A model generated the notes under the pieces. The model searched no databases. It was not told the DNA's origin and worked only from the letters and a program-made list of their open reading frames with translations. Positions 21,613 to 32,804 of a DNA stretch of 64,000 nt are shown piece by piece. The translations under genes and the position numbers were made by a program. Each line of letters opens with the position of its first letter. The first letter of the stretch is position 1. The stretch comes from Burkholderiales bacterium. Lineage in GTDB: Bacteria > Pseudomonadota > Gammaproteobacteria > Burkholderiales > Ga0077523. The DNA lies in contig JALHMS010000001.1 in the NCBI GenBank assembly GCA_022843925.1, forward strand, positions 144,294 through 208,293, given 5' to 3'.

Positions 21613-22623
21613 ATGCCCATCCGCGTCGCCATCAACGGCTATGGCCGTATCGGTCGCAACATCCTCCGTGCCCTCTACGAGTCCGGCCGGAACGGCGAGA
21701 TCCAGATCGTGGCGATCAACGACCTCGGCAGCCCCGAGACCAACGCCCACCTCACCCGCTACGACACCGCCCACGGCAAGTTCCAGGGCAAGGTCGAGGT
21801 GACGTCCGATGGCATGCTCGTGAATGGCGAATCGATCAAGGTGTTCGCGGAGCGGGACCCGGCCAAGCTGCCGTGGAAGTCGCTCGATGTGGACGTCGTC
21901 ATGGAATGCACCGGCATCTTCACCAGCAAGGACCGCGCGGCCGCCCATCTGGCCGGCGGCGCCCGCAAGGTCATCATCTCCGCCCCGGGCAAGGACGTCG
22001 ACGCGACCATCGTGTACGGCGTGAACCACAACACGCTGAAAGCCAGCCACACCGTCATCTCCAACGCGTCCTGCACGACCAACTGCCTCGCCCCGCTGGT
22101 CAAGCCCCTGCACGAGAAGATCGGTGTCACGTGCGGACTGATGACCACGATCCATTCCTACACCAACGACCAGGTGCTCACCGACGTGTATCACGAGGAC
22201 CTCCGCCGCGCGCGGTCGGCCACGATGTCGATGATCCCCACGAAGACCGGCGCCGCCGCCGCCGTGGGCCTCGTCCTCCCGGAACTGAACGGCAAGCTCG
22301 ACGGCTACGCGATGCGCGTCCCGACGATCAACGTGTCGATCGTCGACCTCTCGTTCATCGCTGCGCGCCCGACGACCGCCGAGGAGATCAACGCGATCAT
22401 GAAGGCCGCCGCCGAAGGCGAACTGAAGGGCATCCTCGGCTACACGAAGGAACCGCTCGTGTCCGTGGACTACAACCACGATCCGCGTTCGTCCGTCTTC
22501 GACGCCACCCTGACGAAGGTCTCGGAAGGCACCCTGGTGAAAGTCTCCTCCTGGTATGACAATGAGTGGGGCTTCAGCAATCGCATGTTGGACACGGCAG
22601 TCGCCTTCGTGAACGCGAAGTAG
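21613..22623 (+). CDS. gap: Glyceraldehyde-3-phosphate dehydrogenase, type I
   Basis: [22 protein letters not shown] (catalytic Cys), [21 protein letters not shown] Shine-Dalgarno 6 nt upstream of the ATG. Confidence 0.97.
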
Positions 22624-23059
22624 AGAGACAATCGGTGCCCCACTCATTTCGGCGGAGGCTGACCTCGGCACGAGCCGAGGTTAAGCGAAGCGGCCGCAGC
22701 CACAATGAGTGGGGCTTCAGCAATCGCATGTTGGACACGGCAGTCGCCTTCGTGAACGCGAAGTAGAGAGACAATCGGTGCCCCACTCATTTCGGCGGAG
22801 GCTGACCTCGGCACGAGCCGAGGTTAAGCGAAGCGGCCGCAGCCACAATGAGTGGGGCTTCAGCAATCGCATGTTGGACACGGCAGTCGCCTTCGTGAAC
22901 GCGAAGTAGAGAGACAATCGGTGCCCCACTCATTTCGGCGGAGGCTGACCTCGGCACGAGCCGTGGTTAAGCGAAGCGGCCGCAGCCACAATGAGTGGGG
23001 CTTCAGCAATCGCATGTTGGACACGGCAGTCGCCTTCGTGAACGCGAAGTAGAAAGACA
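22559..23059 (+). repeat. 143-bp tandem repeat, about 3.5 units, each re-copying the last 21 codons of gap (including TAG) plus about 80 nt of non-coding sequence
   Basis: AATGAGTGGGGCTTCAGC starts at 22561, 22704, 22847 and 22990, a period of exactly 143. Units are identical apart from A->T at 22964 and G->A at 23054. Copy 1 is the true 3' end of gap. Confidence 0.95.
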
Positions 23060-23062
23060 CGG

Positions 23063-23092
23063 CAACCGCTCGCCGGACGGCGACGGTTGTTC
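23063..23092 (+). terminator. Possible weak terminator/attenuator hairpin after the repeat array
   Basis: CAACCG(C)TCGCC-GGAC-GGCGACGGTTG followed by TTCC. The stem is 11 bp with one bulge and the U-tract is poor. Confidence 0.35.
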
Positions 23093-23279
23093 CCGGAACG
23101 GCGTGGGTCGGGCTACGGCCCGACGCTCACGGTGACGACACCGTTGACGCATCGACCATCCACCGCACCTGCAATCGAATTTTCCCGGCATCCGTGCCGG
23201 CAAGACCCTGGCGGGGCCCGACGCAACCGACGACGGGCCCCGCTTCCTTTCCACCTCACCCTGCTCGAACACCACCACC

Positions 23280-24467
23280 ATGGCGATCCTGCGACTCACC
23301 GATCTCGACGTGCGCGGCAAGCGCGTGCTCATCCGGTCCGACCTGAACGTGCCCCAGGACGACACCGGCCGCATCACCGAGGACACCCGGATCCGTGCTT
23401 CGGTCGGCGCCGTCCGCGCCGCACTCGACCAGGGCGCCCGGGTGATGGTGACCTCCCACCTCGGTCGCCCCACGGAGGGAACGCTGGCCCCCGCCGATAC
23501 GCTCGAGCCCGTGGCAGCACGGCTGGCCGAGCTGCTGGGACAACCGGTGCCGCTGGTGCGGGACTGGGTGGACGGTCGCGAAGTGGCGCCGGGCGCCGGT
23601 CAGGTCGTGATGCTCGAGAACTGCCGGGTGAACGTCGGCGAGAAGAAGAACGACGAGGACCTCTCGAAGCGCATGGCTGCGCTCTGTGACGTCTACGTGA
23701 ACGACGCCTTCGCGACGGCCCATCGCGCCGAGGCGACGACCCATGGCATCGCGCGCTTCGCCCCGGTCGCGTGCGCGGGGCCCCTGATGGCCGCGGAGAT
23801 CGAGGCACTCGGCAAGGCGCTCGGCAATCCGGCCCGCCCGCTGGTCGCGATCGTCGGCGGCTCGAAGGTCTCCACCAAGCTCACGATCCTCTCGGCCCTC
23901 GCGGCGAAGGTCGATCAACTCGTGGTGGGTGGCGGCATCGCCAACACGTTCATGGTCGCCGCCGGCCTGTCCGTCGGGAAGTCGCTGGTCGAGGCCGACC
24001 TCGTGCCCGAGGCGAAGAAGATCATCGATGCCGCCGCCGCCCGCGGTGCGTCGGTGCCGATACCCGTGGATGTCGTGGTGGCGAAGGCGTTCGCGCCCGA
24101 CGCCGTCGCGACGATCAAGGCTGCCACCGACGTCGCCGACGACGACATGATCCTCGACGTCGGCCCGAAGACGGCCGCCGCCCTGGTCGAGGCCCTTGGG
24201 CTTGCCGGGACGATCGTATGGAATGGTCCGGTCGGCGTGTTCGAGTTCGATCAGTTCGGCGAGGGCACGAAGGCCATCGCCGGCGCCATCGGCGCATCGA
24301 AGGCCTTCACGCTGGCGGGCGGCGGTGACACCATCGCGGCCATATCCAAGTACGACATCACCGACAAGCTGTCCTACATCTCCACCGCGGGCGGCGCCTT
24401 CCTCGAGTTCCTCGAGGGGCGCAAGCTCCCGGCCATCGAGATCCTGGAATCCCGCGCCGCCGGCTGA
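23280..24467 (+). CDS. pgk: Phosphoglycerate kinase
   Basis: [38 protein letters not shown]-like C-terminus. Confidence 0.97.
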
Positions 24468-24504
24468 TCGGCAGCGCGTCTCCGTACCTCTTCGAGGACA
24501 CTCC

Positions 24505-25938
24505 ATGCAGCGTTCCACCAAGATCGTCGCCACGCTCGGCCCCGCCAGTTCGGACCCCGAAGTCCTCCGGAAGATGCTGGCAGCCGGCGTCGACGTGGTG
24601 CGGATGAACTTCTCGCACGGCACCGCGGCGGATCACCTCGCCCGCGCGCAGGCCGTACGCGAGGCGGCCCGCGTCCTGGGCATCACGGTCGGCATCATGT
24701 GCGACCTGCAGGGGCCGAAGATCCGCATCGGCAAGTTCGAGAACAGCCGCATCCAGCTCGAGAACGGCGATCGCTTCATCCTCGACGCCGCCTGCACGCT
24801 GGGCAACCAGGAGCGCGTCGGCCTCGACTACAGGGAACTCCCCGACGACGTCCGCGCCAACGACGTGCTCTTGCTGGACGACGGCCGCATCGTGATGGAT
24901 GTCGAGCGCGTGGTCGGCACCGAGATCCACACCATCGTCCGCCACGGCGGCGAGCTGTCCAACAACAAGGGCATCAACCGCCAGGGCGGCGGCCTCACGG
25001 CGCCCGCGCTGACCTCGAAGGACATGGAGGACATCCGCACCGCGGCCACCATGAAGGCGGACTTCCTCGCGGTGTCGTTCCCGAAGAGCGGTGCCGACAT
25101 GTACATGGCGCGCGAGCTGATGCGCGCGGCCGGCGGGAAGTCGCTGCTGATCGCGAAGGTGGAACGGGCCGAGGCCATCCACGCGCTCGAGGAGGTCATG
25201 GACGCCTCCGACGGCGTCATGGTCGCGCGCGGCGACCTGGCGGTGGAGGTGGGTGACGCCGCCGTGCCCGCGCTCCAGAAGCGGATGATCCGCATGGCGC
25301 GCGAGCGCAACAAGCTGACCATCACGGCCACGCAGATGATGGAGTCGATGATCACGAGCCCGGTGCCGACGCGCGCGGAGGTGTCCGACGTCGCCAATGC
25401 CGTGCTCGACGGCACCGACGCCGTCATGCTCTCGGCCGAGACGGCCGCCGGCAAGTACCCGGTGCAGACGGTCGAGGCCATGAGCCGCGTGTGCCTCGAG
25501 GCCGAGAAGTCCACCGAGTTCTCGCTGGATCGCGAGTTCCTGAACCGCGTGTTCACGCGCGTGGACCAGTCCATCGCAATGGCCGCGCTCTTCACCGCGT
25601 TCCACCTGAAGGTCAAGTGCATCGCCGCGCTCACGCAGTCCGGTTCGACGGCCCTGTGGATCTCGCGCCTCAACTGCGGCGTGCCGATCTACGCGCTCAC
25701 GCCGGAGATCTCGACCCGGTACCGCCTCTCGCTGTTCAAGGACACCTACCCCCTGATGATCCAGTACGTGGGGCACGACCGCGAGCAGCTGCTGCAGGAG
25801 GCGGAGGACAAGCTGAAGAGCAATGGCATCGTCGAGGACGGCGATCTGATCGTCCTCACGATCGGCGAACCCATCGGCAAGGCCGGTGGCACCAATACCA
25901 TGAAGATCGTGCGCGTCGGTGAATCCCGCGCGCGCTGA
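24505..25938 (+). CDS. pyk: Pyruvate kinase
   Basis: MQRSTKIVATLGPAS, RMNFSHG, MVARGDLAVE, and ATQMMESM. The start is trimmed to the ATG at 24505. Confidence 0.95.
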   Translation: MQRSTKIVATLGPASSDPEVLRKMLAAGVDVVRMNFSHGTAADHLARAQAVREAARVLGITVGIMCDLQGPKIRIGKFENSRIQLENGDRFILDAACTLGNQERVGLDYRELPDDVRANDVLLLDDGRIVMDVERVVGTEIHTIVRHGGELSNNKGINRQGGGLTAPALTSKDMEDIRTAATMKADFLAVSFPKSGADMYMARELMRAAGGKSLLIAKVERAEAIHALEEVMDASDGVMVARGDLAVEVGDAAVPALQKRMIRMARERNKLTITATQMMESMITSPVPTRAEVSDVANAVLDGTDAVMLSAETAAGKYPVQTVEAMSRVCLEAEKSTEFSLDREFLNRVFTRVDQSIAMAALFTAFHLKVKCIAALTQSGSTALWISRLNCGVPIYALTPEISTRYRLSLFKDTYPLMIQYVGHDREQLLQEAEDKLKSNGIVEDGDLIVLTIGEPIGKAGGTNTMKIVRVGESRAR

Positions 25939-25968
25939 ACCCACGTTTTCCACGGCGATATCCCGACC

Positions 25969-26472
25969 TTGAACCTGCCCCCCCGAGTCGGCGTGGTGAT
26001 GGGCTCCCAGAGCGACTGGGACACCATGCAGCACGCCGCGCGCATCCTCCAGGACCTCGATGTTCCCCACGAGGCCCGCATCGTGTCCGCCCATCGCACG
26101 CCGGACCTGCTCTTCGAGTACGCCAGCGCCGCTGCCGCGCGCGGTCTAGCGTGCATCATCGCGGGGGCCGGCGGCGCGGCGCATCTCCCGGGCATGCTGG
26201 CGGCTAAGACGCGGATCCCGGTGCTGGGCGTCCCCGTCCAGAGCCGCGCGCTGCAGGGGCTGGACTCGCTGTTGTCCATCGTGCAGATGCCGAAGGGTGT
26301 CCCGGTGGCGACCTTCGCGATCGGCGAAGCGGGTGCCGCCAACGCCGCGCTCTTCGCGGCAGCGATGCTCGCCGTGAACGACACCGGACTCGCGGCCCGG
26401 CTCGACGCCTTCCGCCAGCGGCAGACCGACACCGTGCTGGCCACGCAGCTGCCGCCCGTCGCAGGATCATGA
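25969..26472 (+). CDS. purE: 5-(carboxyamino)imidazole ribonucleotide mutase
   Basis: [30 protein letters not shown]. The start codon is TTG. Confidence 0.95.
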
Positions 26473-27635
26473 AGTCCGTCGCTCCCGGCGCCTGGCTGGG
26501 CCTGCTCGGTGGCGGCCAGCTCGGCCGCATGTTCACGATGGCAGCCCAGAGCATGGGGTATCGCGTGGTGGTGGTGGACCCCGGCCATGACAGCCCCGCG
26601 GGGTCGGTTGCCGACGACCATCTCTGCGCGGACTACCTCGACCCCGACGCGCTGGCGGAACTCGCGCGGCGCTGCGCGGGTGTCACGACCGAATTCGAGA
26701 ACGTCCCGGCCGAGGCCCTGCGCCGCCTCGCGGAGCACTGCGTCGTGAGCCCCGCCGCGGACAGCGTCGCCGTCGCGCAGGACCGCATTCTCGAGAAGCG
26801 ATTCCTGCAGGCCGCCGGTCTCGGTACCGCGCCGTTCGCGGTGATCGAGTCCGAGGCTGACCTCGACAAGGTCCCCGACGACCTGCTGCCCGGCATCCTG
26901 AAGGCGGCGCGCTTCGGTTACGACGGCAAGGGCCAGGCCCGCGTGCGGACCCGTGACGCTTTGCGCGAGGCCTTCGTCGCCATGGGTGGCCGGCCGGCCG
27001 TGCTGGAGCAGATGCTCGCCCTCGAACGCGAAGTGTCGGTGGTGGTGGCCCGCGGTTTCGACGGCGAGGTGCGCACCTTCCCGGTGGCCGAGAACCGGCA
27101 CGCGAACGGCATCCTCGACGTGAGCATCGTGCCGGCGCGCGTCCCCGAGGCGCTGGCGCAGACGGCCCGTGCACAGGCGCTGAAGGTCGTCGAGGCGCTC
27201 GACTATCGCGGCGTTCTGTGCGTGGAGTTCTTCGTGCTGGCCGACGGTCGGCTGCTCGCGAACGAGATCGCGCCGCGTCCGCACAACAGCGGGCACTACA
27301 CGATCGACGGGTGCGTGACCTCGCAGTTCGAGCAGCAGGCGCGCGTGCTCTGCGGCCTGCCGCTGGGCGAGACCGCCGCGCACTGCCCCTCCGTGATGAT
27401 CAACCTGCTGGGCGACCTCTGGGCCGCCGGCGAACCGGATTGGCGCATCGTCCTGCGCGAGCCCCGCGCGAAGCTGCACCTGTACGGCAAGTCCGAGGCG
27501 CGACCCGGCCGCAAGATGGGCCACTTCACCGTCCTGGGCGACGACGCTGACGCGACGCTCGCCACCGCCGCTTCACTGCAGTCCCGACTTCTCCCGACCG
27601 CGGATGCCGCGGCCCGATCCGGAACCTCGTCATGA
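26469..27635 (+). CDS. purK: 5-(carboxyamino)imidazole ribonucleotide synthase (ATP-grasp, bicarbonate-dependent)
   Basis: [11 protein letters not shown]-grasp core, [23 protein letters not shown] overlap with purE. Confidence 0.95.
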
Positions 27636-28516
27636 CCGACATCGCCATCCACGAGACGAACCTGCGCTCGCTGCGCTTCCTGCATCGCGGGAAGGTGCGC
27701 GACATCTACGCCATCGACGACGAGCGGCTGCTGATCGTGCAGACCGACCGCCTGTCGGCCTTCGATGTGATCCTGCCCTCGCCGATCCCGGGCAAGGGCA
27801 AGGTGCTCACTGAGGTCTCGAACTTCTGGTTCGCACGCCTGGGCCACGTGATCCCCAATCATCTGCTGCCGGTGGACCCGCTCACGGTGGTCGCCCCGGA
27901 CGAACGGGACCAGGTGGCAGGCCGGGCATTCGTGGTGCGGCGTCTGAAGCCGCTCCCGATCGAAGCGATCGTTCGCGGCTATGTGGCGGGTTCGGGCTGG
28001 AAGGACTACCAGCGCACCGGCGCCATCTGCGGCATCCCGCTGCCTGCTGGCATGGCCGAAGCGCAGAAGCTCCCGGCACCCATCTTCACGCCGTCGACCA
28101 AGGCGCCCGCGGGATCCCACGACGAGAACATCCCGTTCGCGGAAGCCGAACGTCTGCTCGGCGCTGCACGCGCCGCCGAGGTGCGCGACGCCGCGATCCG
28201 CCTCTACAGCGAAGCCGCCGACTTCGCCGCCACCCGGGGCATCCTCATCGCCGACACGAAGTTCGAGTTCGGCACGGACGCCGCCGGAAAGCTATACCTG
28301 ATCGACGAGGCGCTCACGCCGGATTCGTCGCGCTTCTGGCCGGTCGCGGGCTACCGCACGGGCATCTCGCCGCCCTCGTTCGACAAGCAGTTCGTGCGCG
28401 ACTGGCTCGAAGCGCACGACTGGAACAAGAAGCCGCCCGCGCCCGCCCTCCCGGCCGACTTGCTCGAGAAGACGGCGGAGAAGTATCGGGAGGCACTGCG
28501 CCTCCTGGTGGGCTGA
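27632..28516 (+). CDS. purC: Phosphoribosylaminoimidazole-succinocarboxamide synthase
   Basis: [34 protein letters not shown] overlap with purK. Confidence 0.95.
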
Positions 28517-29490
28517 TGTCCGCTGCCACGGCCGACCCCCGGGACATCGCGGCGGCAGTGGCGGCACTGCGCGCCGGCCGGCTCGTCGCGTTCCCCTCCG
28601 AGACGGTGTACGGCCTCGGGGCCGACGCCTCGAACCCCGACGCCGTCCGGCGCATCTTCGAGGCCAAGGGCCGCCCCGCCGATCATCCCGTGATCGTCCA
28701 CGTCGCCTCGGCGAAGCAGCTGGGGGACTGGGCCCGCGACATCCCGCCTTCCGCCTTCGCGCTGGCCGAGGCCTTCTGGCCGGGCCCGTTGACGCTCGTC
28801 CTGCGTCGCCGGCCCCACGTGAGCGATCTCGTGACGGGCGGTCAGGACACCGTCGGCATCCGCGTGCCATCGCATCCGGTCGCGCAGGCGCTCCTGCAGG
28901 CCTTCGGCGGCGGCATCGCGGGCCCGTCGGCCAACCGCTTCGGGCGCATCTCGCCCACGACCGCGGACCACGTGCGCGACGAGCTGGGCGACCGCGTGGA
29001 CATCGTCCTCGAAGGCGGTAAGAGCGACGTCGGCATCGAGTCCACGATCATCGATCTCTCGGGTCCGGAACCCGCCCTCCTGCGGCCTGGGATGCTCGAC
29101 ATCGCCCGCGCCGAGGCCCTTCTCGGGGTGCCGCTGCGCTCGCCCGGCATCGCGTCCCCAAGGGTGTCGGGCATGCTCGCCTCGCACTACGCGCCGCGCA
29201 CACCGACGCGCCTGGTGACGCCGGACGCGCTCGTCGCCGCAATCCGGGCCGCGAACGCCCGCGTGGCCGTCCTCGCACGACGGCCGCGACCCGCCGGACT
29301 CGCTGCGGTGGATTGGATCGACGCGCCCGCCTCGGCCGCCGCCTACGCCCACGATCTGTACGCATGCCTGCGCACTCTCGATCGCGCAGGAGCCGACCTG
29401 ATCCTCGTGGAGTCGGTGCCCGCGTCTTCGGACTGGACCGCCATCCGGGACCGCCTCGGCCGCGCCGCGACCCGCCCGGAGACTCCATGA
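28516..29490 (+). CDS. tsaC: L-threonylcarbamoyladenylate synthase (Sua5/YwlC/TsaC family, long form)
   Basis: PSETVYGLGADA, KGRPADHPVIVH, PGPLTLVL, VGIRVPSHP, SANRFG, plus a C-terminal Sua5 domain. The start overlaps the purC stop by 1 nt. Confidence 0.9.
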   Translation: MSAATADPRDIAAAVAALRAGRLVAFPSETVYGLGADASNPDAVRRIFEAKGRPADHPVIVHVASAKQLGDWARDIPPSAFALAEAFWPGPLTLVLRRRPHVSDLVTGGQDTVGIRVPSHPVAQALLQAFGGGIAGPSANRFGRISPTTADHVRDELGDRVDIVLEGGKSDVGIESTIIDLSGPEPALLRPGMLDIARAEALLGVPLRSPGIASPRVSGMLASHYAPRTPTRLVTPDALVAAIRAANARVAVLARRPRPAGLAAVDWIDAPASAAAYAHDLYACLRTLDRAGADLILVESVPASSDWTAIRDRLGRAATRPETP

Positions 29491-30434
29491 GCCTCGACCC
29501 CGTCGTCCTGTTCTTCCTGCTGGGTGTGTTCGCGCGCTTGCTGCGGAGCGACCTGCGGCTCCCCGAGGCCATGTACGAGGGCCTCTCGATCTACCTGCTG
29601 CTCGCGATCGGTCTGAAGGGCGGTGTCGAACTCTCGAAGCATCCGATCGGACCCCTGCTGCCCCAGGTGGGCGGCGTGCTGCTGCTCGGCCTGCTGCTGC
29701 CGCTGATCGCCTACCCGGTGCTCCGCGGACTCGGTCGACTGCCGAAACCCGACGCGGCATCGATCGCGGCGCACTACGGTTCGGTCAGCATGGTGACCTT
29801 CGCGGTCGCGACGACCTTCCTCGTGGACCGCGGCGTGGCTCACGAGGAGTACATGCCGCTCTTCGTCGTGCTGCTCGAGGTCCCCGGGATCATGGTGGGC
29901 ATCCTCATCGCCAAGCTCGGAGCGGGCGGCGGCATACGCTGGGGTGCACTCGCCCACGAAGTGCTCCTGGGCCGCAGCATCGTGCTGCTCACGGGGGGAC
30001 TCGCGATCGGCTGGATCTCGGGGCCCGAGGCGCTGGCGCCGCAGTCGAAGCTCTTCTTCGAGCTCTTCAAGGCGGTGCTCGCGCTCTTCATGCTCGAGAT
30101 GGGCCTCGTGGCGGCGGGCCGCATCCGCGAGCTGCGTCGTGCCGGCGCTTTCCTCCTCGCGTTCGGGACGATCGCGCCATGCGTCTTCGCGGTGATCGGC
30201 GTGCTCACGGGCCGCGTGATCGGTCTCTCGCCGGGCGGCGCGATGCTGCTGGGCGCCCTCGCCGCCAGCGCGTCGTACATCGCGGCTCCGGCAGCCATGC
30301 GGATAGCGGTGCCCGAAGCGAACCCCTCGCTGTCCCTCGCCGCCGCGCTCGGGGTCACGTTTCCGTTCAACATCGTGTTCGGCATTCCGATGTACCACCG
30401 CATCGCAGCCGCCGTCGTGCCCCCGGCACTCTGA
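29487..30434 (+). CDS. SbtA-like sodium-dependent bicarbonate transport family permease
   Basis: 315-aa polytopic membrane protein. MSLDPVVLFFLLGVFARLL.SDLRLPE..YE.LSIYLLLAIGLKGG is the characteristic SbtA-family N-terminus. ATGA overlap with tsaC. Confidence 0.8.
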   Translation: MSLDPVVLFFLLGVFARLLRSDLRLPEAMYEGLSIYLLLAIGLKGGVELSKHPIGPLLPQVGGVLLLGLLLPLIAYPVLRGLGRLPKPDAASIAAHYGSVSMVTFAVATTFLVDRGVAHEEYMPLFVVLLEVPGIMVGILIAKLGAGGGIRWGALAHEVLLGRSIVLLTGGLAIGWISGPEALAPQSKLFFELFKAVLALFMLEMGLVAAGRIRELRRAGAFLLAFGTIAPCVFAVIGVLTGRVIGLSPGGAMLLGALAASASYIAAPAAMRIAVPEANPSLSLAAALGVTFPFNIVFGIPMYHRIAAAVVPPAL

Positions 30435-30441
30435 GGATCCC

Positions 30442-30744
30442 ATGCAGACCCACGCCCTCAAGCTGGTCGTCGTCATCACCGAATCCGCGCTGGAGACGCT
30501 GCTGGTGAAGGACATCCTGGCGCTCGGCGCCCACGGCTACACGGTGGCGGACGTGCGCGGCGGCGGTCGGCGGGGCGTGCGCGATGGCGCTTGGGAAGGC
30601 GACCGCAACATCCGCATCGAGGTGATCTGCCACGACACCGTCGCCGACGCCATCGCCGAGCACGTGCTCCAGCGGTACGCGCTCAACTATTCGACCACGG
30701 TGTTCGTCAGCGACATCGGGGTGCTGCGGCCGGAGAAGTTCTGA
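30442..30744 (+). CDS. SbtB-like PII-family signalling protein
   Basis: 100 aa. KLVVVITESALETLLVKDILALGAHGYTVADVRGGGRRG aligns with cyanobacterial SbtB as I recall it (KLVIVTEK..GAKGYTV..TGGKGSR). It starts 7 nt after the permease gene. Confidence 0.75.
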   Translation: MQTHALKLVVVITESALETLLVKDILALGAHGYTVADVRGGGRRGVRDGAWEGDRNIRIEVICHDTVADAIAEHVLQRYALNYSTTVFVSDIGVLRPEKF

Positions 30745-30766
30745 CGATGGCAGTACCCGCACACTG

Positions 30767-31117
30767 ATGGCGCCGCAGCCGCCGACTCCGGGCACGGCGC
30801 TATGCCGGATCGAAGAGATCCCGGAAGGCGAGGGCCGCGAGTTCGTGTTCGGCACGGGCATGGCCGCCTGGCGCGGTCTCGTCGTGCGGCGCGGCGATCG
30901 CGTCTTCGGGTACGTGAACGAATGCCCGCATCACTTCATCCCCCTGAACGACCGCGGGGACCGGTTCGTGACCTGGGATCACGAATGGATCATCTGCTCG
31001 GCCCACGCCGCCGTGTTCCGCTACGAGGACGGCCACTGCGAGGACGGCCCGTGCAAGGGCCGCGGTCTCCAGCCCTGGCCGGTGGTGATCCGCGACGGCG
31101 CGATCGTCACTGCCTGA
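30767..31117 (+). CDS. Small Rieske [2Fe-2S] domain protein
   Basis: CPHHFIPL ... CSAHAAVF (C-x-H ... C-x-x-H ligand pattern), 116 aa. Confidence 0.8.
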   Translation: MAPQPPTPGTALCRIEEIPEGEGREFVFGTGMAAWRGLVVRRGDRVFGYVNECPHHFIPLNDRGDRFVTWDHEWIICSAHAAVFRYEDGHCEDGPCKGRGLQPWPVVIRDGAIVTA

Positions 31118-31170
31118 TCCCGACGGGCACGCCCTGGTCGCGCGATGGAGATTCCCCGCCCAATCATCGC

Positions 31171-31199
31171 CTTGCTTACCATAAGCTAGGCAACTAAAA
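31171..31199 (+). promoter_or_regulatory. Putative sigma70 promoter of the marR-emrAB operon, with an overlapping imperfect inverted repeat
   Basis: TTGCTT (31171-31176), a 17-nt spacer, then TAAAAT (31194-31199). The marR ATG lies 7 nt after the -10 element. The spacer contains TTGCTTA-N8-TAGGCAA. Confidence 0.4.
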
Positions 31200-31206
31200 T
31201 CGCCCC

Positions 31207-31686
31207 ATGGCCCAGGAAGACCTTTCGCGCAACTTCGGTTTCATCCTGAACGACGTCGCGCGGCTCCTGCGCACGGCGTTCGACCGCCGCGTGCGCTCGC
31301 TGGGCTTCACCCGCTCCCAGTGGTGGGTGCTCAATCACCTGTACCGCAACGATGGCCTCAATCAGTCGGAACTCGCCGAGTTGCTCGAAGTGGAAAAGGC
31401 GACGCTCGGCCGTCTGCTCGACCGCATGGAACAGAAGGGCTGGATCCGCCGCGAGGCCGACGCCAATGATCGGCGGGTACGGCGCGTGTTCCTGACGGAC
31501 GAGGTCGGCCCCACCATGAAGGCCATGCGTGCCGCCGCCGCCGATCTCCGCCGCGAGGCCCTCGCCGGGCTGACACCGGAGGCCCAGGATCACTTCGTCG
31601 ACACGCTCATCGCCGTGAAGACCAACCTGACCCGCACCGCCCACGGTGCCACCGCCAGGACGCAACGGGGGCGGGAGCGCCGATGA
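31207..31686 (+). CDS. MarR family transcriptional regulator
   Basis: Winged-HTH region LTRSQWWVLNHLYRNDGLNQSELAELLEVEKATLGRLLDRMEQKGWIRR..DANDRR. Confidence 0.9.
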   Translation: MAQEDLSRNFGFILNDVARLLRTAFDRRVRSLGFTRSQWWVLNHLYRNDGLNQSELAELLEVEKATLGRLLDRMEQKGWIRREADANDRRVRRVFLTDEVGPTMKAMRAAAADLRREALAGLTPEAQDHFVDTLIAVKTNLTRTAHGATARTQRGRERR

Positions 31687-32804
31687 TCCGCCTGCCACGC
31701 CTGCGTCGGCCGTCCGCACGCGGCTTCTTCCGCCTGTTGCTGCTCGTGATCGTGCCGCTCGCCGCGATCGTGATCGCCACGCGCATGTACGCCGAGTCGG
31801 GCCGGATCGCCGAGACCGAGAACGCGTACGTGAAGGCCGAGATCATCGTGGTGAGCAGCGAGGTCGTCGGGCGCGTCGTGGAGGTGGGCGTGCGGGACAA
31901 CGAAGCCGTTGCGGCCGGTGCGCTGCTGTTTCGCGTGGACCCCGCCCCGTTCGAGATCGCCGTGGCGCGCGCCCGCGCACAGATGGACGTCATCCGGACC
32001 GACCATCAATCGCTGCGCGCGGAGTACCGCGCCGCACAGCGCGAGGGCGAGGAGGTCCAGGAACAGATCGCCTTCCTCTCGCGCCAGCTCGAGCGTCAGG
32101 AGAAGTTGCGCGAGACCGGCATGGCCCGGGGCGATGCGCTCGACGAGGCGCGCCACAACCTCGAGCTTGCGCGCCGCCGGCTCGTGAGCGTGCGCGAGCG
32201 TGCCACGCGCGTCGTCGCAGGCCTCGCCGGCAATCCCGACCTGCCCGTGGAACGCTTTCCGCGTTACGCGGAGGCGAAGGCCTCCCTCGACGCCGCGCTG
32301 GACGATCTCGCCCGCACCACGATCCGCGCCCCCGCGGGGGGCACGGTGAGCAACATGCGCCTGCAGCCGGGCGAGCACGTCGAGAAGGGGGCCCCGGTGT
32401 TCAGCCTGATCAGCGGCCAGCCCGCCTGGATCGAGGCGAACTACAAGGAGACGCAACTCACCCACATGCGGGTCGGCCAGCGGGCCACCGTGGCCGTCGA
32501 CGCATACCCGGACATCGAATGGCCCGCGGTGGTGGCCTCGATCGCCCCGACGACGGGCGCCGAGTTCGCCGTGCTCCCGCCGCAGAACGCGAGCGGCAAC
32601 TGGGTCAAGGTGGTGCAGCGCGTGCCGGTGCGGCTCGAGGTCGAACAGCCCGAGGGTCAGCCGAAGCTGCGGGCCGGCATGACCGTCACCGTGTCGGTGG
32701 ACACCGGCCGCAGCAACGGCCTGCCCCGCGTGGTGCGTCGACTGGTGGATCGCGGCTTGCTGCCGCGCTTCCTCGAACCCGCCACCGCCGTCGCGGAGCG
32801 CTGA
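31683..32804 (+). CDS. HlyD/EmrA-family membrane fusion protein
   Basis: N-terminal TM helix, coiled-coil region, the TIRAPAGGTVSNMRLQPGEHV lipoyl-like hairpin, and VLPPQNASGNWVKVVQRVPVRL (EmrA signature). ATGA overlap with marR. Confidence 0.9.
   Translation: MIRLPRLRRPSARGFFRLLLLVIVPLAAIVIATRMYAESGRIAETENAYVKAEIIVVSSEVVGRVVEVGVRDNEAVAAGALLFRVDPAPFEIAVARARAQMDVIRTDHQSLRAEYRAAQREGEEVQEQIAFLSRQLERQEKLRETGMARGDALDEARHNLELARRRLVSVRERATRVVAGLAGNPDLPVERFPRYAEAKASLDAALDDLARTTIRAPAGGTVSNMRLQPGEHVEKGAPVFSLISGQPAWIEANYKETQLTHMRVGQRATVAVDAYPDIEWPAVVASIAPTTGAEFAVLPPQNASGNWVKVVQRVPVRLEVEQPEGQPKLRAGMTVTVSVDTGRSNGLPRVVRRLVDRGLLPRFLEPATAVAER

Follow-up and report, generated by a model that had tools for sequence, protein, structure and literature searches.

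An SbtAB-like gene pair at the end of a purine gene string in Burkholderiales and its possible role in bicarbonate supply

Gene string and products of the sbtAB-like pair

The stretch of DNA analyzed here (hereafter the window; 64,000 nucleotides of contig JALHMS010000001.1, assembly GCA_022843925.1) derives from a metagenome-assembled genome (MAG) of an uncultured Burkholderiales bacterium. It carries a pair of genes related to cyanobacterial sbtA and sbtB, which encode a bicarbonate symporter and its PII-like partner. The pair follows purE, purK, purC, and tsaC on the same strand, with pgk and pyk upstream and a gene for a small Rieske protein downstream (Table 1). Pairings of sbtA with purine genes and other genes for bicarbonate-using enzymes recur in separate bacterial groups, which suggests that such transporters may supply bicarbonate for ordinary biosynthesis.

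Table 1. Genes of the string in the window, with coordinates and supporting profile matches.
Gene or product	Position	Strand	Match and remarks
pgk	23280-24467	+	Pfam PGK, 466 bits; upstream member of the conserved string
pyk	24505-25938	+	Pfam PK, 364 bits, and PK_C
purE, class I N5-carboxyaminoimidazole ribonucleotide (N5-CAIR) mutase	25969-26472	+	TIGR01162, 216 bits (cut-off 150); TTG start
purK, N5-CAIR synthetase	26469-27635	+	NF004677, 597 bits (cut-off 441)
purC, phosphoribosylaminoimidazole-succinocarboxamide (SAICAR) synthetase	27632-28516	+	NF010568, 451 bits
tsaC, threonylcarbamoyl-AMP synthase, Sua5 type	28516-29490	+	TIGR00057, 201 bits (cut-off 123)
SbtA-family permease (Sbt_1), 315 aa, presumed Na+/bicarbonate symporter	29487-30434	+	PF05982
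SbtB-like protein of the PII fold, 100 aa, presumed to regulate or plug the permease	30442-30744	+	PF00543
Small Rieske [2Fe-2S] protein	30767-31117	+	PF00355, 38 bits

The initial annotation, made without database searches, had named the genes from purE to the Rieske gene and described a chain of start/stop overlaps followed by two short gaps. Profile matches confirmed all of these identities, and every junction coordinate was reproduced. The stop and start codons share ATGA at purE/purK (26469-26472), purK/purC (27632-27635), and tsaC/sbtA (29487-29490), and the purC/tsaC junction reads TGATG (28514-28518) with a 1-nt overlap at 28516. The PII-like gene begins 7 nt after sbtA (gap 30435-30441) and the Rieske gene 22 nt after the PII-like gene (gap 30745-30766); upstream, 30 nt separate the pyk stop from the purE start. 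Good ribosome-binding sites are present for both genes of the pair (GGAGA, 5 nt before the sbtA ATG, and GAGGA for the PII-like gene). Because the start of sbtA lies inside the tsaC stop, there is no intergenic room for a promoter of its own, and, barring a promoter within tsaC, expression of sbtA would be tied to that of tsaC. The overlaps suggest that the chain is read as one shared transcript. A consensus scan found no promoter-like or terminator-like sites within the chain, which is weak evidence at the 69% GC of the source genome, and no Rfam match to a riboswitch or other RNA element was found in 22000-32000. Four-base overlaps are common in high-GC operons, where they mark operon organization and are not improbable per se. 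It is the conserved and recurrent linkage, rather than the overlaps, that is informative. Regarding the enzymes encoded upstream of the pair, PurK belongs to the ATP-grasp enzymes and its substrates include ATP and bicarbonate, and the TsaC product has both the Sua5_yciO_yrdC (PF01300, 207 bits) and Sua5_C (PF03481, 82 bits) domains.

The sbtA-like product matches the Sbt_1 family, Transporter Classification 2.A.83 (379.9 bits, positions 1-307 of 308, against a cut-off of 27). It aligns with Synechocystis SbtA (PDB 7cye; E = 6.7e-26) in two stretches that represent both inverted repeats (permease residues 5-145 with 18-158, and 155-307 with 214-368). In Synechocystis SbtA, residues of the crossover helices make up the Na+ site and contribute to the site of docked bicarbonate; the residues concerned are Gly111, Ser114, Ser322, Ser324, Tyr140, and Ser327 (Liu et al., PMC8352866). 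The crossover-helix Gly and Ser residues are kept in the window permease, in which Gly98, Ser101, Ser261, and Ser263 correspond to Synechocystis Gly111, Ser114, Ser322, and Ser324. These four are invariant across 173 non-cyanobacterial homologs, including copies that adjoin carboxysome genes. Unlike Synechocystis SbtA, the window permease is about 60 residues shorter, lacks the cytoplasmic loop 166-212, and has Val127 and Ala266 in place of Tyr140 and Ser327, respectively. The same two replacements are found in nearly all of the non-cyanobacterial homologs aligned, copies at carboxysome loci included.

The product of the sbtB-like gene matches the P-II family at 76.8 bits. Its closest match in the PDB is Thermus TTHA0516 (2cz4; E = 1.4e-18), and cyanobacterial SbtB (6mm2) is matched at E = 2.6e-8. 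Arg43 and Arg46 in the T-loop of Synechocystis SbtB bind nucleotide phosphates, those of ATP in the case of Arg46, and contact SbtA. These residues align with Arg44 and Arg47 of the window protein; Arg47, the equivalent of Arg46, is kept as in Synechocystis SbtB, and in at least 80% of 52 homologs of the partner. Unlike some cyanobacterial SbtB proteins, the partner has no C-terminal CGPxGC redox loop (the C-terminus is ...GVLRPEKF, with no Cys pair), and its T-loop is four residues shorter than that of Synechocystis SbtB. The matches to solved SbtA and SbtB structures settle the predicted fold of both proteins. The pair thus belongs to the same two families, in the same order and with similarly tight spacing, as cyanobacterial SbtA/SbtB (Synechocystis Slr1512/Slr1513; PDB 7cye, 7egk, and 5o3p). 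Among the surveyed loci described below, a PII-like gene is directly after sbtA in 51.

Inorganic-carbon genes of the source genome

The source assembly is 5.57 Mb in size and 99% complete, and its closest named relatives are uncultured MAGs labeled Burkholderiales or Rhodocyclaceae. A profile search found one Sbt_1 gene in this genome. The RuBisCO family is represented by a single PF00016 match in this nearly complete assembly (G000:C14:about 99900-101171), and no true form I or form II RuBisCO was found, as this sole protein scores under the cut-offs of all RuBisCO models. It is closest to the RuBisCO-like 3-oxo-isoapionate-4-phosphate decarboxylase OiaX (436 bits, under the cut-off of 700). 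As judged from RuBisCO type, the source genome shows no autotrophy of the Calvin-Benson-Bassham type. A CO2-concentrating mechanism (CCM) or autotrophy as the context of the pair was rejected, given that the genome's sole member of the RuBisCO family is merely RuBisCO-like, and the suggestion in the initial annotation that the pair acts outside a CCM is supported. Unlike cyanobacterial SbtAB, the window pair occurs in a heterotroph without true RuBisCO and is joined to an operon for purine and threonylcarbamoyladenosine (t6A) synthesis, outside a CCM regulon induced by low CO2.

Other genes for inorganic carbon are located outside the window. The single beta-carbonic anhydrase gene of the genome is paired with a SulP transporter gene, the end of which it overlaps (G000:C4:14299-16525), and a DabB/DabA pair is present at G000:C16:16946-20988. 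SbtAB is therefore one among several (at least three) inorganic-carbon systems of this genome. A putative catalase-peroxidase-like gene adjoins the DabB/DabA pair.

Conservation, history, and recurrence of the linkage

For the comparison within the order, 301 Burkholderiales genomes were searched for Sbt_1, which was found in 84; Sbt_1 genes were also found in Caulobacter and Thermus. A set of 80 Sbt_1 sites outside the genus of the window was taken with 7-kb flanks. Gene calls in this survey were homology-guided open reading frames (ORFs) and not gene-finder output. The surveyed loci include kin, which are not independent, and the quick trees are weak at deep branches.

Among genus-mates carrying the primary copy, purC-tsaC-sbtA-sbtB is present in 17 of 17, most of which have the Rieske gene too. 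A pur-tsaC-sbtA string occurs in 20 named MAGs and starts at pgk or pyk in most of them. The synteny of pgk-pyk-purEKC-tsaC-sbtAB (L031-L050, L081, L082, and L095) extends through the genus and several neighboring families, and SbtA sequences from loci with the full string fall into a single clade that spans several families (Shimodaira-Hasegawa-like approximate likelihood ratio test support of 99).

Nine or more families of the order have purC next to tsaC without sbtAB. The tsaC gene follows purC with no sbtAB there in L244, L247, L249, L251, L253, L254, L257-L261, L263, L264, L266, and L268, and in L267 it follows purE. Within the genus, sbtAB is absent from the 100% complete genome G020, where purK-purC-tsaC is followed by a 67-aa ORF and then by the Rieske gene. 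Neither blastn nor tblastn detected an sbtAB remnant in this gap. The 67-aa ORF (MSAFESLPDWQRKLRFEYPGV...; L234:2530-2735 in G020) is conserved in the relatives L002-L014; it is located before the Rieske gene, the start of which it overlaps. Neither the window nor L031 has this ORF, and there the sbtB-Rieske spacing is only about 22-25 nt. In the Burkholderiales MAG SJ887, a 74-codon ORF after tsaC (L070:8001-8225) is the remnant of an in-frame sbtAB deletion, in which about 52 codons from the beginning of sbtA run into the final codons of sbtB. A similar fragment matching 69 positions of Sbt_1 is found right after tsaC in G068 (G068:C48:14692-14892). Because purC-tsaC without sbtAB is widespread in the order, sbtAB must have joined an older pur-tsaC cluster and later been lost in some lineages. 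It follows that the tsaC-sbtA overlap largely reflects the landing site, and that the link to TsaC is mostly inherited. The Rieske gene was rejected as a member of the module, as it follows tsaC and the 67-aa ORF in G020 without sbtAB, and it is a separable neighbor.

Across the order, no fewer than four different arrangements place sbtA beside purE or purK. In L099, an SbtA from another subclade occupies the same site, and L098 and L109 have purEKC-GNAT-sbtA-sbtB. In an autotroph of the same order (G134; L088:1-10411), purE-purK-PII-sbtA follows cbbQ and carboxysome-associated genes, and the SbtA protein is only 43% identical to that of the window. A SulP/STAS transporter gene is on the opposite strand in L088, and purEK is within the CCM-type locus. 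On a tree of 173 SbtA sequences, linkage to pur genes requires at least nine changes of state.

The pairing is also found in a second phylum of the Planctomycetes-Verrucomicrobia-Chlamydiae type, represented by genomes of 0.9-3.1 Mb (one MAG is labeled Planctomycetales by NCBI). Sbt_1 is rare in this phylum (9 of 251 genomes), and purE, purK, or purC is beside sbtA at 9 of 11 sites. The gene orders vary, and include sbtA-sbtB-purK-purE, purK-purE-sbtA-sbtB, purC-purE-[one ORF]-sbtA, and sbtA-PII-purE. In the small-genome MAG labeled Planctomycetales, sbtA-PII-purK-purE-ppc is on one strand (L067:7907-13594), with ppc encoding a phosphoenolpyruvate (PEP) carboxylase (902 bits). No RuBisCO was found in five genomes of this phylum. 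A third setting, carA-carB-sbtA-sbtB, occurs in four Balneolales-type genomes (L059, L060, L061, and L065; hosts Balneolaceae, Rhodohalobacter, and Bacteroidetes UBA2664), with a beta-carbonic anhydrase gene following in three of the four loci. A span of ±7 kb represents about 0.3-0.7% of the surveyed genomes; as this is well under 1%, chance does not explain the recurrent adjacency to pur genes.

Other neighbors were observed at 40 sites from the rest of Pseudomonadota. In about 12 of these 40 loci (among them L204, L206, L209, L212, L215, L217, L218, L220, L223, L225, and L229), no more than about 1.5 kb separates sbtA from a gene for beta-carbonic anhydrase, whether a PII-like gene is present or not, and LysR regulators are the other common neighbors. 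Carboxysome genes are beside sbtA in three to four surveyed loci. In L131:2146-5387 (G135:C51), three tandem Sbt_1 paralogs adjoin a divergent LysR regulator gene.

Proposed role and alternative explanations

Based on gene context, we consider it probable that SbtAB acts as a bicarbonate importer serving anabolic carboxylations, above all that of PurK. The sbtA-like product would be a secondary, probably Na+-coupled bicarbonate importer, and the sbtB-like product a PII-type partner that may dock at the cytoplasmic side of the permease via its T-loop. Having joined an older (pgk-pyk-)purE-purK-purC-tsaC operon at its 3' end, the pair would be expressed along with it. The imported bicarbonate would feed a cytoplasmic pool for bicarbonate-dependent biosynthetic enzymes, PurK first, as the PurK step of purine synthesis is known to be sensitive to CO2 supply. 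The pair would serve as an accessory high-affinity route beside DabAB and carbonic anhydrase, and not as part of a CCM that serves RuBisCO. The substrate of the permease and the direction in which it is moved are inferred, as are co-transcription and regulation by the PII-like partner. Bicarbonate as the substrate of non-cyanobacterial homologs is supported by the trait shared by their neighbors, since PurK, CarB, PEP carboxylase, carbonic anhydrase, and the carboxysome all have to do with bicarbonate or CO2.

PurK is a natural client because it uses bicarbonate and because cyanobacterial purK mutants require high CO2 (PMC10880623, citing Schwarz et al., 1992). At very high levels of dissolved inorganic carbon (DIC), PurE alone can carboxylate aminoimidazole ribonucleotide with CO2 (PMC10880623). 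As a high-CO2-requiring locus, cyanobacterial purK ties the PurK step genetically to inorganic-carbon supply; there the link is a mutant phenotype, whereas in the window purK shares an operon with a transporter gene.

That heterotrophs need a supply of bicarbonate, through carbonic anhydrase or MpsAB/DabAB, is already known. The enzymes that depend on carbonic anhydrase or a DIC transporter in these bacteria are PurK, acetyl-CoA carboxylase, and carbamoyl-phosphate synthase (bioRxiv 10.64898/2026.09.08.750065; MpsAB, PMC6689103). The role proposed for the window pair is the same as that of MpsAB/DabAB and carbonic anhydrase in Staphylococcus aureus (PMC6689103) and Bacillus subtilis (bioRxiv 10.64898/2026.09.08.750065), namely keeping enough bicarbonate in the cytoplasm, at the CO2 level of air, for carboxylations such as those of PurK and carbamoyl-phosphate synthase. 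Unlike SbtA, which is a bicarbonate symporter, DabAB belongs to an unrelated family and is proposed to be an energy-coupled (vectorial) CO2 hydratase. To our knowledge, MpsAB/DabAB systems do not occur inside a purine operon.

In the open-access literature, no description of an sbtA-purK operon was found. The survey contributes the Burkholderiales form, in which purC and tsaC are between purEK and sbtAB, and evidence that this form arose when sbtAB joined a cluster already in place. Genes of the SbtA family are widespread among bacteria without CO2 fixation, and no experimentally established role for them was found in the literature; the recurrent operon link to PurK, CarAB, and PEP carboxylase provides a concrete and testable one. 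If the proposed role is correct, SbtAB would keep bicarbonate-dependent biosynthesis going where CO2 is scarce, such as when cell density is low, aeration strong, or pH alkaline, and the linkage points to purine synthesis as a main client. The short, loop-less SbtA variants with their simple partner protein are also candidates for engineered bicarbonate uptake. A bolder version of this proposal, which we regard as speculative and unlikely in full, is that heterotroph SbtAB forms an anabolic bicarbonate module wired to the carboxyphosphate-forming PurK and CarB and to PEP carboxylase. The PII partner of the pur-linked forms would then sense the adenylate or purine-nucleotide pool, the end product of its own operon, and open or plug the importer accordingly, closing a feedback loop between purine synthesis and bicarbonate uptake.

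Several observations weigh against the proposed service to PurK, and several of them also count in favor of another explanation, according to which SbtAB is a general module for inorganic carbon, Na+, or pH homeostasis and its position after tsaC is a neutral one at a permissive operon end, unrelated to purine or t6A synthesis. Within the order, purC-tsaC without sbtAB is the wider state, and within the genus sbtAB is dispensable, being present or absent at the same site (absent in G020, with the deletion remnant in L070). The linkage in the order may partly reflect a permissive insertion site at the operon end. Most of the 80 sites fetched from the order are not beside pur genes, and at none of the 40 sites from the rest of Pseudomonadota (0/40) were pur, tsaC, car, or ppc neighbors found; the majority of homologs have other locations, frequently near a gene for a LysR regulator or beta-carbonic anhydrase. 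Conservation of the linkage, on which the initial annotation had made its proposal depend, therefore holds in the genus and several neighboring families but not at these 40 sites, which makes the linkage lineage-specific and not universal. The source genome also has DabAB and the SulP-carbonic anhydrase pair, and with such other bicarbonate routes present, purine synthesis cannot hang on SbtA alone. Finally, two of the four docked bicarbonate contacts of Synechocystis SbtA (Tyr140 and Ser327) are lost. Nevertheless, a general module does not readily account for the direct adjacency of sbtA to purE or purK in varied orders, in distant SbtA clades and at most second-phylum sites, when chance would put such genes side by side at well under 1% of sites. 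CarAB and PEP carboxylase, the neighbors in other loci, are bicarbonate users as well. The general module is clearly less probable than bicarbonate supply to PurK and other anabolic carboxylases.

A more distant alternative is that the permease carries another substrate, such as a small anion or a metabolite of the purine pathway, and that the family name is misleading for this clade. Only cyanobacterial SbtA and, by the account of a review, a few homologs from autotrophic proteobacteria have been assayed so far (PMC10880623; PMC8352866), and both the replaced Tyr140 and Ser327 equivalents and the missing long cytoplasmic loop would fit a changed specificity. However, the same substitutions occur in homologs at carboxysome loci or beside carbonic anhydrase, and bicarbonate or CO2 is all that the recurring neighbors (PurK, CarB, PEP carboxylase, beta-carbonic anhydrase, and carboxysome) have in common. 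A different substrate is thus quite improbable.

The initial annotation had proposed that the pair serves the carboxylations of both PurK and TsaC. This proposal is partly supported, in that the link to PurK appears strong, with recurrent linkage to PurK/PurE, CarAB, and PEP carboxylase, and the link to TsaC weak, with purC-tsaC predating sbtAB. A placement of the pair specifically for TsaC/Sua5, supplying bicarbonate for threonylcarbamoyl-AMP and t6A synthesis, would agree with the overlap of the tsaC stop and the sbtA start and with two second-phylum loci in which tsaC is next to sbtA or sbtB without purC (divergent in L156 and convergent in L157), but it is highly improbable, since the carbon demand of t6A would be tiny compared with that of purine synthesis and the direct neighbor in most independent cases is purE or purK; TsaC as the main client was rejected because the purC-tsaC adjacency is older than sbtAB. 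The sbtA gene of L156 is a second copy in the same genome as L067, and it is followed by a gene with a putatively CysD-like N-terminus.

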